A stretch of 64,000 nucleotides of DNA from an uncultured Gammaproteobacteria bacterium (GTDB taxonomy: Bacteria; Pseudomonadota; Gammaproteobacteria; Steroidobacterales; BM003). The position numbers and the translations under genes were made by a program. The notes under the pieces are model-generated. The model did no database searches. It saw only the letters and a list, made by a program, of their open reading frames with translations, and was not told the DNA's origin. Below are positions 2,157 to 3,611 of this stretch, piece after piece (position 1 is the first letter of the stretch; each line of letters starts with the position of its first letter). The stretch lies in the NCBI GenBank assembly GCA_963823435.1, contig CAWGLN010000001.1:468872-532871 (forward strand), written 5' to 3'.

Positions 2157-3611
2157 ATGAATATACAATTTACTGTCGATCACGGGAACCCCTCTGAAAA
2201 ACAGCTTGGGGAAGGTCCAAAAAATATCCTTTTGGTAGGAAATTTCTCAGGCCGCAAGCCCGGGCAGGAGCAAAATGACAAGCAAGGGCCGGTTCTTAAC
2301 ATATTGCAGGTTGACGTCCTGGAGCCGGAAAAGGCCATGTCCCGCCTGAATCCCGTATCCCTGATCGGTATCGGGGCCGAGCAGATCGAACTGGTATTTA
2401 CCAGCATGGATGACTTTCATCCAGACGCCATTTACCGCAGCCAGCCCTCCTTTGTCGTGATGCAGGAACTGAAACAGGCGCTTGGAGATCCCGCAAGGGC
2501 GGAGCGGGCATCACAAGTCTGCCGCCAGTTACTCGGGCATGCTCCAGTGAGCCAACCGGACCCAGTGGATCAACCCCCGACTCAGCCGGAAAAAACGACC
2601 CGGGAGACTTCCGGCGATATGTTTTCCCGCCTGCTGGGTCAGGCGCCCGGCGCCTCCACTCCCGTCAAAGCCGCCACCCAGAGACTACTGGAACAAGCGG
2701 TGGGAACCGACCTGGCACCAGAAAACTCCCGGGATCACGAACTTCTGCGAGATGACATCAATAAATGGTGCGAAGCAGCGATGCGGGAACTATTACGATC
2801 TCCGGAATTTCGCGAACTCGAGATCAATTGGCGGTCACTGCAGTTGCTTGGTGAGCATGTTGAGTTCGACGAAGAGACCACTCTTTGGCTGGTGGATGTG
2901 GGCACAGCCAGGCCATCCGCATGGGGCCCCGGTCTGGGTCAGGTGATAACCCGGAAATTGGCTGGCGAACAGGTCGATTTGATCATTGCTTTGCACGAGT
3001 TCTCGGACTCTTCCGATTCCATGACCGACTTGCATGCCCTGATGACGACAGCCGGAACACTTTCGGCTCCGGTACTTGCGGCCGCAAACCCGGTCTTGGC
3101 GGGTCTGCCGGGTATGCCAGAGAGCCGCAATCCGCCACTCGCAATCGACGCAAATGATATCGCAGGCGTCTCGTCCCCTGACTGGCAGGCGCTCAGACGG
3201 CAGCCAGGTGCGGCCCGTGTGGGCCTCGGTTTCCCAAGGGTGCTTTTGCGGCAACCCTACGGGCCGCGCTCAGATGCAGTGGATACATTTGATTTCGAAG
3301 AACTGGAGGCGGACCCGGATCACGAATCATTTGTCTGGGGGAACCCGGCCATTGCTCTGGCGGTCATCTGGCTGGCGCAGCAGGCAAACCCGCGAAGCAA
3401 CCTGCAGTTAAACGATTTGCCTATGGTGACGTACGACGACGGTAGCGGTCAGGCTATCAAGCCGCCCTCAGAGCTATACCTCAGCGATTCGGCAACAGAA
3501 AAACTAATCAGCCTGGGGCTCATGCCACTGGTCGGAAAACGCGGTCACACGGGAGTCAGTCTGCCCCGGCTTCAATCTATCGCCAATCCGGCCACGGTCC
3601 TGAAAGGTTAG
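2157..3611 (+). CDS. Fused TssB(VipA)-like / TssC(VipB)-like sheath paralog, 484 aa, lacking the TssC C-terminal domain
   Basis: - The N-terminus aligns by eye to the window's own TssB: NILLVGNFSGRKPG...ELVFTSMDDFHPDAIY versus PFVMGVMADLSGKPA...DITFESMDDFSPAAVA.
- The rest is colinear with the window's TssC. PEFRELEINWRSLQLL matches EDFRKLEGAWRGLHHL, FPRVLLRQPYGPRSDAVDTFDFEE matches MPRFLARQPYGAKSDPVEEFDFEE, and FVWGNPAIALA matches YVWANSAYAMA.
- There is no clear Shine-Dalgarno sequence upstream. Confidence 0.7.
   Translation: MNIQFTVDHGNPSEKQLGEGPKNILLVGNFSGRKPGQEQNDKQGPVLNILQVDVLEPEKAMSRLNPVSLIGIGAEQIELVFTSMDDFHPDAIYRSQPSFVVMQELKQALGDPARAERASQVCRQLLGHAPVSQPDPVDQPPTQPEKTTRETSGDMFSRLLGQAPGASTPVKAATQRLLEQAVGTDLAPENSRDHELLRDDINKWCEAAMRELLRSPEFRELEINWRSLQLLGEHVEFDEETTLWLVDVGTARPSAWGPGLGQVITRKLAGEQVDLIIALHEFSDSSDSMTDLHALMTTAGTLSAPVLAAANPVLAGLPGMPESRNPPLAIDANDIAGVSSPDWQALRRQPGAARVGLGFPRVLLRQPYGPRSDAVDTFDFEELEADPDHESFVWGNPAIALAVIWLAQQANPRSNLQLNDLPMVTYDDGSGQAIKPPSELYLSDSATEKLISLGLMPLVGKRGHTGVSLPRLQSIANPATVLKG

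Follow-up and report, generated by a model that had tools for sequence, protein, structure and literature searches.

The gene described here lies at positions 2157 to 3611 of the plus strand in a stretch of 64,000 nucleotides (the window) from an uncultured gammaproteobacterium (contig CAWGLN010000001.1). It encodes a protein of 484 residues in which parts of both type VI secretion system (T6SS) sheath subunits, TssB and TssC, are joined in a single polypeptide. The open reading frame (ORF) had been proposed in an earlier annotation made from the letters of the DNA (the sequence-only reading), and was confirmed by translation. The protein belongs to a widespread family of T6SS-linked sheath paralogs that has been given no name, and it is almost certainly a functional member. 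The paralog has lost exactly the domain used for polymerisation, the handshake domain, has kept a helix of the ClpV-recognition type, and is misannotated as 'TssC'. Judged from its sequence, it probably helps to start, stop or recycle the sheath.

A fused and truncated sheath paralog

The N-terminal part of the protein was TssB-like, as had been claimed. The Pfam profile T6SS_VipA (PF05591) aligned residues 2-111 to profile positions 10-122 of 155 (E=4.9e-5); the score of the single sequence, 23.6 bits, was just below the gathering score of 24, and a precomputed PF05591 match was present in most of its relatives. BLASTP against the TssB of the same locus aligned residues 66-99 to TssB residues 85-118 (41% identity, E=8e-6), a stretch that includes VFTSMDDFHPDA versus TFESMDDFSPAA and with it the SMDDF.P box. 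A profile built from 40 family members matched the solved TssB/VipA chains with E-values of 1e-13 to 1e-15, and its positions 6-132 paired with residues 20-151 of HsiB1. The module contains the segment NIQFTVD, a GNFSG strand, the DDFHPD box (residues 85-90) and the TssC-binding helices. The absence of the first 16 or so residues of TssB, also noted earlier, was borne out, as both the Pfam and the family profile alignments start about 16-19 residues in and leave these residues without a counterpart. The N-terminus of the paralog is the equivalent of HsiB1 residue ~19-20 (local TssB, QKFIARNRAPRVQIEYDVE; paralog, MNIQFTVD), and NIQFTVD is a putative beta-1 donor strand. The C-terminal tail of TssB is missing as well.

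The remainder of the protein was TssC-like. It matched Pfam VipB (PF05943) with E=4.6e-32 (111.7 bits, cut-off 27), and BLASTP against the TssC of the locus aligned residues 212-476 to TssC residues 98-384 (29% identity, E=5e-28), including the motifs FR.LE..WR.L, PR.L.RQPYG..SD.V..FDFEE and VW.N. The family profile matched TssC1 of Pseudomonas aeruginosa (5n8n_B) with E=7.5e-79. This assignment in the sequence-only reading stood, but its placing of the start of TssC homology at about residue 90 did not: in hmmsearch the linker between the modules aligned to N-terminal helices of TssC proteins, so that the homology extends to the N-terminal side of residue ~90. The VipA and VipB similarity on which that reading depended was reproduced for both halves with the family profile and at the level of the fold; with Pfam the VipB match was clear and the VipA match borderline.

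The module ends where the handshake domain of a real TssC begins (PF18945, VipB_2, named in Pfam the 'tail sheath gpW/gp25-like domain'), in agreement with the earlier claim of a stop before the C-terminal domain. Pfam detected no PF18945 in the paralog, whereas the C-terminal fragment of the TssC of the locus matched it with E=4.6e-44. No remnant of VipB_2 was found downstream of the stop codon of the paralog, where the ORF at 3693-4175 had no Pfam match.

An AlphaFold2 model of the paralog, with the family alignment as input, had a predicted local distance difference test score (pLDDT) of 84 and a predicted template modelling score (pTM) of 0.82, and both halves were modelled with confidence. 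In the TssB-like module, residues 22-126 were mostly above a pLDDT of 83, with a dip at residues 31-50, and residues 1-20 were low. Values below 50 were obtained in the linker (residues 135-159, 161-172 and 178-188), and residues 135-190 were predicted to be disordered. The best structural matches of the model were all T6SS sheath large subunits (E=1e-17 to 1e-13).

The paralog is neither a TssC nor a TssB. The status of a TssC is denied to it because the handshake domain is missing, the score against the NCBIfam TssC equivalog (TIGR03355) was 100.9 bits versus a cut-off of 271.5, and its phylogenetic position is in a separate clade (see below). Against the TssB equivalog (TIGR03358) the score was 20.9 bits versus a cut-off of 97.25; canonical TssB is a separate polypeptide of ~170 residues, whereas the TssB-like module of the paralog is fused to the TssC-like part. 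The paralog had no match in PHROGs, and Pfam and NCBIfam detected no GPW_gp25, ImpA_N, ImpE or tetratricopeptide repeat (TPR) domain in it.

A word-indexed search returned 95 relatives with 98% to 26% identity, nearly all of them with 95-100% query coverage. These homologues are 440-585 residues long and carry PF05943, with or without PF05591, and never PF18945; all members seen end at the PF05943/PF18945 boundary. In an exhaustive search of 1.84 billion representatives, the family comprised at least 150 clusters at 50% identity, the best 150 matches being all full-length and above 500 bits; the total of 8,902 matches includes canonical TssB and TssC. A scan of one genome per species, with a 25-sequence alignment of distant clades as the query, yielded at least 80 full-length loci, and the family claim is kept to these because the 575 confirmed stretches of that scan may include canonical TssCs with PR.LLR.PYG. 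Members were found in Beta-, Gamma-, Delta- and Alphaproteobacteria, Acidobacteriota (Terriglobia, Bryobacterales and Vicinamibacterales), Planctomycetota, Nitrospirota, Gemmatimonadota and Rokubacteria. Carrier genera include Rubrivivax, Aquabacterium, Massilia, Rugamonas, Viridibacterium, Competibacter, Contendobacter, Methylobacter and Sedimenticola, and members from the Roseobacter group were added by tblastn against plasmids.

The family alignment contained 14 invariant and about 29 nearly invariant positions. The invariant residues are all present in the paralog of the window (D53, H88-P89-D90, E222, W225, R347, P360, R365, P367, G369, F380, E382 and G454). Over 288 shared columns in 11 loci, the mean identity was 47% among the fusions, 66% among the cognate TssCs and 33% between a fusion and its own TssC; the paralog and the local TssC are 29-33% identical. 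A neighbour-joining tree of these 288 columns separated the fusions from the canonical TssCs in 100 of 100 bootstraps. Compared with its closest relative (locus L087, protein 98% identical), the ORF of the paralog showed no indel, and the ratio of nonsynonymous to synonymous substitution rates (dN/dS) was 0.154.

The family has no dedicated Pfam or NCBIfam model, and its members are named in databases 'ImpC / contractile sheath large subunit', 'predicted T6SS component' or 'hypothetical'. No published description of a TssB-TssC fusion family was found in the accessible literature, including a 2026 review of T6SS accessory factors, and a prior description in subscription papers is possible. This is in line with the sequence-only reading, in which the architecture was not recognised as a named T6SS component.

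The linker motif, the giant fusions and the genomic setting

In the family alignment, the linker was variable in length and sequence with the exception of one motif, whose glycine (G161 in the paralog) was at least 90% conserved. Using hmmsearch, the corresponding family segment, 'D.L..LLG', was paired with the N-terminal helix of Vibrio cholerae VipB ('sLLDEIMAQT') and with the equivalent helices of TssC from M. xanthus and A. vinelandii. The VipB helix 19-LLDEIM-24 is the binding site of the ClpV N-domain in V. cholerae, and HsiC1 of P. aeruginosa, which represents the TagJ class, has 21-EFASLL-26 in place of the LLDEII motif (Forster 2014). In the window, the TssC reads GDFASLLQKE and the paralog GDMFSRLLGQ (residues 153-162).

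The motif was present in 65 of 73 loci, and in all 15 loci where both sequences were readable the class of the motif in the paralog (LLDxxI or F..LLG) was that of the cognate TssC. Six of these loci (the window, L030, L038, L050, L063 and Leisingera) have F..LL in TssC and ..LLG in the paralog, and nine (L042, L049, L058, L059, L061, L067, L071, L075 and L076) have LLD..I in both. As the fusions and the TssCs form separate clades, a switch of motif class took place in each of them; among the fusions, those of the LLD type group with one another. The link to ClpV raised in the sequence-only reading gains support from this co-variation. The same reading had named TagJ as a second target for a decoy. 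TagJ bridges TssB and ClpV and grips residues 8-30 of HsiB1, with K9 and the pocket residue F10 as key residues; a role as TagJ decoy is unlikely because this segment, including K9 and F10, is absent from the paralog.

A far larger form of the gene was observed on Rhodobacterales plasmids in three genera, Leisingera, Ruegeria and Qingshengfaniella. One uninterrupted ORF of 1,214-1,654 residues encodes, in order, a complete TssB, acidic repeats, the paralog, and an acidic tail bearing the same motif. The TssB part matched PF05591 with E~1e-63, and in Leisingera it is 81% identical to the cluster's own TssB. The repeats share the core [VAIL]L.[GSAD]L, which is related to the motif of the linker, and in Leisingera, the genus in which they were counted, there are about 40 copies of ~21 residues. 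The annotated coding sequence (PGAP/RefSeq) begins inside the repeats, under the name 'contractile sheath large subunit', and leaves the TssB part unannotated. This 'Rosetta-stone' fusion physically ties the paralog to a bona fide sheath subunit, and its sequence marks the linker motif as a functional element.

The genomic neighbourhood was counted in 83 non-redundant loci, and T6SS genes were found within 10 kb at 57 of them. The only broadly shared neighbour, and the most frequent one, was vgrG, which lay within 3 kb at 40 loci (upstream and divergent at 34, downstream on the same strand at 6). In Acidobacteriota, the paralog gene is often directly upstream of tssB-tssC-tagJ-tssA-tssE. In the window, the paralog gene forms its own transcription unit on the strand opposite to the T6SS operons, and a promoter and terminator scan of positions 1400-3800 returned weak consensus matches only.

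Possible roles at the sheath

In the handshake sheet of the sheath, TssC beta-11/12 is the acceptor. Two strands act as donors: TssC beta-13, which comes from the adjacent subunit of the protofilament (between discs), and TssB beta-1, which comes from an adjacent subunit of the disc (Salih 2018). Tubules do not form without the C-terminus of TssC, but TssC(1-212) retains binding to TssB (Lossi 2013). In the local TssC, the last three strands lie in the PF18945 fragment. Because PF18945 is absent from the paralog, it has neither the acceptor nor the inter-disc donor. It retains the TssB/TssC core, here within one chain (sheath domain 2), together with parts of domain 3, the putative TssB beta-1 donor strand and the recognition helix; beta-11 and beta-12, which make up the acceptor hairpin, are lost, as are beta-13, the donor strand at the C-terminus, and the inner layer that faces the tube.

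These features suggest, with a chance slightly better than even, that the paralog acts as a non-polymerising mimic that docks on the tail and is recognised by a reader of the TssC N-terminal helix. Since the handshake domain, with its acceptor hairpin and donor strand, is missing, self-polymerisation is not expected; the paralog would be unable to polymerise alone or to propagate a lattice, yet able to dock on one. The factor reading the TssC N-terminal helix would, in systems of the VipB class, be the N-domain of ClpV. The nearest experimental analogue is the engineered combination of HsiB1 and HsiC1(1-212), which gave a stable complex and no cogwheels or tubules (Lossi 2013). In that case two chains and an artificial cut at residue 212 were used, whereas the family is natural, fused, extends to about residue 375 and is under selection. 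Taken as a whole, the explanation of the paralog as a non-propagating sheath-subunit mimic docking on the T6SS tail is favoured tentatively, at somewhat less than an even chance.

A precise position for such a mimic can be proposed, and is doubtful: 'ring 0', at the junction of sheath and baseplate, beside TssE. A review (Clemens 2018) describes TssE/gp25 as a mimic of the handshake domain that takes up the C-terminal strand of the lowest disc of the sheath. Like the paralog it is a partial mimic of a sheath subunit encoded in T6SS loci, but it has only the handshake-like strands; the two are complementary and not homologous, and their pairing is a proposal. TssE would supply the gp25-like domain that is absent from the paralog, so that TssE plus paralog would amount to one sheath protomer. 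With TssE accepting the C-terminal strand of the bottom TssC disc, beta-1 of the paralog could serve as the donor within the disc; for a subunit that has beta-1 and neither the hairpin nor beta-13, this in-disc site on TssE would be the only fully satisfying position. The resulting collar might nucleate or stabilise the first sheath disc and be cleared by ClpV after firing. It is unlikely, though conceivable, that such a collar is an unrecognised structural component of a large, phylum-spanning subset of T6SSs and that, by way of its class-matched recognition helix, it makes the initiation of the sheath and the recycling of the baseplate dependent on ClpV. If so, the giant fusion of Rhodobacterales would be an extreme elaboration of this device.

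Several observations weigh against the docking mimic, and against its ring-0 placement in particular. The T6SSs of V. cholerae, P. aeruginosa (H1) and enteroaggregative Escherichia coli (EAEC) work without such a protein, which could therefore be an accessory at most. Domain arithmetic is all that points to ring 0. The tether of ~900 residues in Rhodobacterales is hard to reconcile with a precise or rigid collar; a binding platform would suit it better. Canonical TssC evolves more slowly than the fusion, in which 44 columns strictly conserved in TssC vary freely, and this pattern is as compatible with a peripheral or regulatory role as with a structural one. About 26 of the 83 loci have no T6SS gene within 10 kb, and this orphan status was confirmed by Pfam for the two loci examined (L007 and L056). 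Behind the agreement of motif class in all 15 loci there may be no more than one correlated switch per side. In the HsiC1 class the N-terminus of TssC is dispensable for binding of ClpV1 (Forster 2014); the window belongs to this HsiC1/TagJ class, so that ClpV is at most a candidate partner of the linker motif here.

On balance unlikely is a role as a soluble regulator or decoy outside the tail, which would titrate ClpV (or the ClpV/TagJ complex) or bind free TssBC protomers and in this way tune the timing of sheath assembly or the rate of recycling. The motif lies in a linker predicted to be disordered and so would be constitutively accessible, its class follows that of the cognate TssC, and the ~40-fold amplification of the motif in Rhodobacterales resembles a multivalent binding platform. 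The separate transcription unit on the opposite strand and the faster evolution than that of lattice-bound TssC also point this way, as does the location in the clpV-vgrG 'variable region', where Xanthomonadales group-3 T6SSs hold regulators. A decoy, however, would have no need to preserve the whole domain-2 core and the TssB beta-1 strand in six or more phyla, and the dispensability of the N-terminal helix in the HsiC1 class counts against this role too. The Rhodobacterales tether to a complete, assembly-competent TssB argues for an action on the sheath.

It is improbable that the paralog is a terminator or 'poison' subunit that docks at the growing distal end through beta-1 and contacts of domains 2 and 3. 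Without the acceptor hairpin and beta-13, such a subunit would block further addition, and so would set the length or stop growth of the sheath. The absence of both the acceptor and the inter-disc donor strands fits this role, C-terminally truncated TssC binds TssB without polymerising, and regulation separate from the main operons would suit a sub-stoichiometric factor. The vacancy at the distal end, however, is filled by beta-13 of the next-disc TssC, which the paralog lacks, leaving no obvious strong attachment. In addition, TssA, which in this locus is of the short type (TIGR03363), already caps the distal end, and it would be unusual for a pure inhibitor to be kept inside the structural locus across phyla.

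The frequency of vgrG as a neighbour could suggest an adaptor, chaperone or cargo that loads or stabilises the spike, which is very improbable: the paralog has the fold and the motifs of a sheath subunit, Pfam and NCBIfam detected no similarity to the adaptor families DUF4123, DUF1795 and DUF2169, the gene is simply inserted where clpV and vgrG meet in T6SSs of this type, and the ClpV-type motif would be left unexplained. A decaying relic of a tssB-tssC duplication, which the sequence-only reading had listed, or an artefact fusing and truncating both genes, would fit the frameshifted appearance of tssC, hcp and two TPR-methyltransferase genes in the window, but is excluded with near certainty by the low identity to the local TssC, the recurrence of the architecture (at least 150 clusters at 50% identity, 80 or more species-level genomes), the monophyly of the family, its dN/dS of 0.154, and an ORF that is free of indels relative to a close relative, against which ~16 unpaired single-base indels occur just downstream. 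An independent second sheath was also considered and rejected, as the paralog has no handshake domain and no second set of tube and baseplate genes was found nearby.

With canonical TssB and TssC (VipA/VipB, HsiB1/HsiC1), both halves of the paralog share fold and sequence family; the TssC-binding helix of TssB, the PR..LR.PYG, F.FEE and WGN motifs and a recognition helix of the same class are kept. The paralog differs in being a single polypeptide, without the TagJ-bound residues of TssB and without the handshake domain. A second 'TssC homologue' has been described in A. tumefaciens, TssC40 (Atu4340), which is required for Hcp secretion (Lin et al. 2013). This additional TssC-like gene of a T6SS locus, which is not redundant, resembles the paralog by description. 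In a Rhizobium phaseoli locus related to the TssC40 system, tssD immediately follows tssC. Extra sheath paralogues also occur in extracellular contractile injection systems, in which Afp2/3/4 and Pvc2/3/4 take special positions near the baseplate. These proteins keep their handshake domains, form complete discs, and are not known to be TssB-TssC fusions. The best Pvc structural match of the paralog model was remote (Foldseek E=1.4e-3).

The nucleation of the T6SS sheath on TssE, its stabilisation, its stopping and its handover to ClpV form an active field. The accessory factors for sheath assembly, stability and disassembly (the TssA variants including the TssA cap, TagA, TagB and TagJ) are, to our knowledge, unrelated to sheath proteins. 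In systems with a short TssA, to which that of the window belongs, TagB and TagJ are reported to stabilise the sheath from the baseplate. The paralog shares no domain with these factors and, unlike them, is derived from sheath subunits; its locus has separate tssA and tagJ genes. A conserved, sheath-derived paralog in hundreds of species and at least six phyla would offer a new handle on those steps, and it occurs in culturable carriers (Massilia, Rugamonas, Rubrivivax, Methylobacter and Roseobacter-group plasmids). It can contaminate automated counts of T6SSs and TssC phylogenies, since it bears the name 'contractile sheath large subunit / ImpC' in PGAP and IMG. That a conserved, phylum-spanning accessory protein of this origin had gone unnoticed as a 'TssC' would probably surprise a T6SS specialist.

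The T6SS locus of the window

The T6SS of the window is H1-like, has TagJ and a short TssA, and carries the paralog at the junction between clpV and vgrG (Table 1). As had been stated in the sequence-only reading, its gene is on the strand opposite to the adjoining vgrG. The two are divergent with one 91-residue ORF between them, and the same layout is seen in loci L001, L002 and L087. On the other side, the genes run tssA-tssB-tssC-hcp-tagJ-tssE-tssF-tssG-clpV, followed by the two TPR-methyltransferase genes and the 241-residue ORF, all on the minus strand and ending at 3753. The longer flanks of relatives show that the vgrG-side set continues with DUF6931, PAAR, fha, tssJ, tssK, tssL and tssM.

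Table 1. Features of the paralog gene, of its locus in the window, and of the giant ORFs in Rhodobacterales (aa, amino acids; SAM, S-adenosylmethionine)
Feature	Position	Strand	Remarks
Fused sheath paralog gene	2157..3611	+	ATG start, 484 aa and stop; Pfam VipB and VipA
TssB-like module, aa 1-126	2157..2534	+	Pfam, family profile, BLASTP, AlphaFold2 model
Proline-rich/acidic linker, aa 127-190	2535..2726	+	Predicted disordered
Linker motif GDMFSRLLGQ, aa 153-162	2613..2642	+	Homologous to TssC N-terminal ClpV-recognition helix
TssC-like module, aa 191-484	2727..3608	+	TssC up to Pfam VipB end (~TssC1 residue 375)
vgrG, N-terminal 481 codons	1..1445	-	Phage_GPD E=1.8e-92, Phage_base_V; continues beyond left window end
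91-aa ORF	1665..1940	-	Conserved in L001, L002 and L087, only this clade; dN/dS 0.075
241-aa ORF, convergent with paralog	3753..4478	-	Last gene of minus-strand T6SS operon; conserved in closest relatives, dN/dS 0.277
Remnants of two TPR + SAM-methyltransferase genes	4486..7670	-	Multiply frameshifted here, intact in relatives
clpV	8349-11084	-	Pfam/NCBIfam
tssG	11108-12163	-	Pfam/NCBIfam
tssF	12127-14004	-	Pfam/NCBIfam
tssE	14016-14519	-	Pfam/NCBIfam; gene separate from paralog
tagJ	14651-15442	-	Pfam/NCBIfam
hcp, split (15739-15984 + 15498-15854)	15498-15984	-	Pfam/NCBIfam
tssC, split	16041-17577	-	VipB ORF 16414-17577 and VipB_2 ORF 16041-16457, different frames
tssB	17546-18070	-	Pfam/NCBIfam
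tssA, short type (TIGR03363)	18196-19230	-	Pfam/NCBIfam
Giant ORF, Leisingera NC_023136.1	L085 10788-15752		
Giant ORF, Ruegeria NZ_CP081104.1	L089 3595-7743		
Giant ORF, Qingshengfaniella NZ_CP042263.1	L090 4015-7680		

The split of tssC and hcp reflects either decay of the T6SS in this organism or indel errors in the assembly. Alignment of the window with L087 showed ~16 unpaired 1-bp insertions at 4.9-6.9 kb and more at 8.0-8.35 kb, no indels inside the paralog gene, and in vgrG nothing but 3-bp changes that keep the frame. These one-directional indels are clustered. The stretch of the two TPR-methyltransferase genes, between clpV and the paralog, spans 4486-8348 (minus strand) in the window and 12341-15505 in L087; the TPR-methyltransferase genes are broken into at least 8 ORFs in the window, versus intact proteins of 596-616 and 438-446 residues in relatives. 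The reverse is seen in L087 (16244-18980), where clpV is called as two genes (628 and 286 residues) and the TPR-methyltransferases are intact. This T6SS-linked pair appears, as far as was seen, to be undescribed. An obligatory partnership with the paralog was rejected, as the pair is beside it in only ~17 of the 83 loci and is broken in the window, where the paralog is intact.

Neither the 91-residue nor the 241-residue neighbour belongs to a Pfam, NCBIfam or PHROGs family; the N-terminus of the latter (GDTLESLVSEY) looks LysM-like by eye only. Upstream of tssA, at 19586-23785 (minus strand), are a 519-residue ORF without a family match and an 826-residue protein with weak matches to HerA/FtsK-type ATPases; in relatives the fha-tssJKLM block is on the vgrG side and not upstream of tssA. 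The two orphan copies examined are at 10001-11344 of L007 (Viridibacterium curvum) and 10001-11443 of L056 (a metagenome-assembled genome of Terriglobia), and neighbours of orphan copies include a citrate synthase-like protein, a Na/H exchanger, MipA, a methyl-accepting chemotaxis protein, glycogen synthase and YceG. Farther away in the window, at 55588-58362 (minus strand), a 924-residue protein, unrelated to the paralog, combines a middle domain like that of hydrazine synthase alpha (PF18582, E=4.9e-16) with PD40 repeats.

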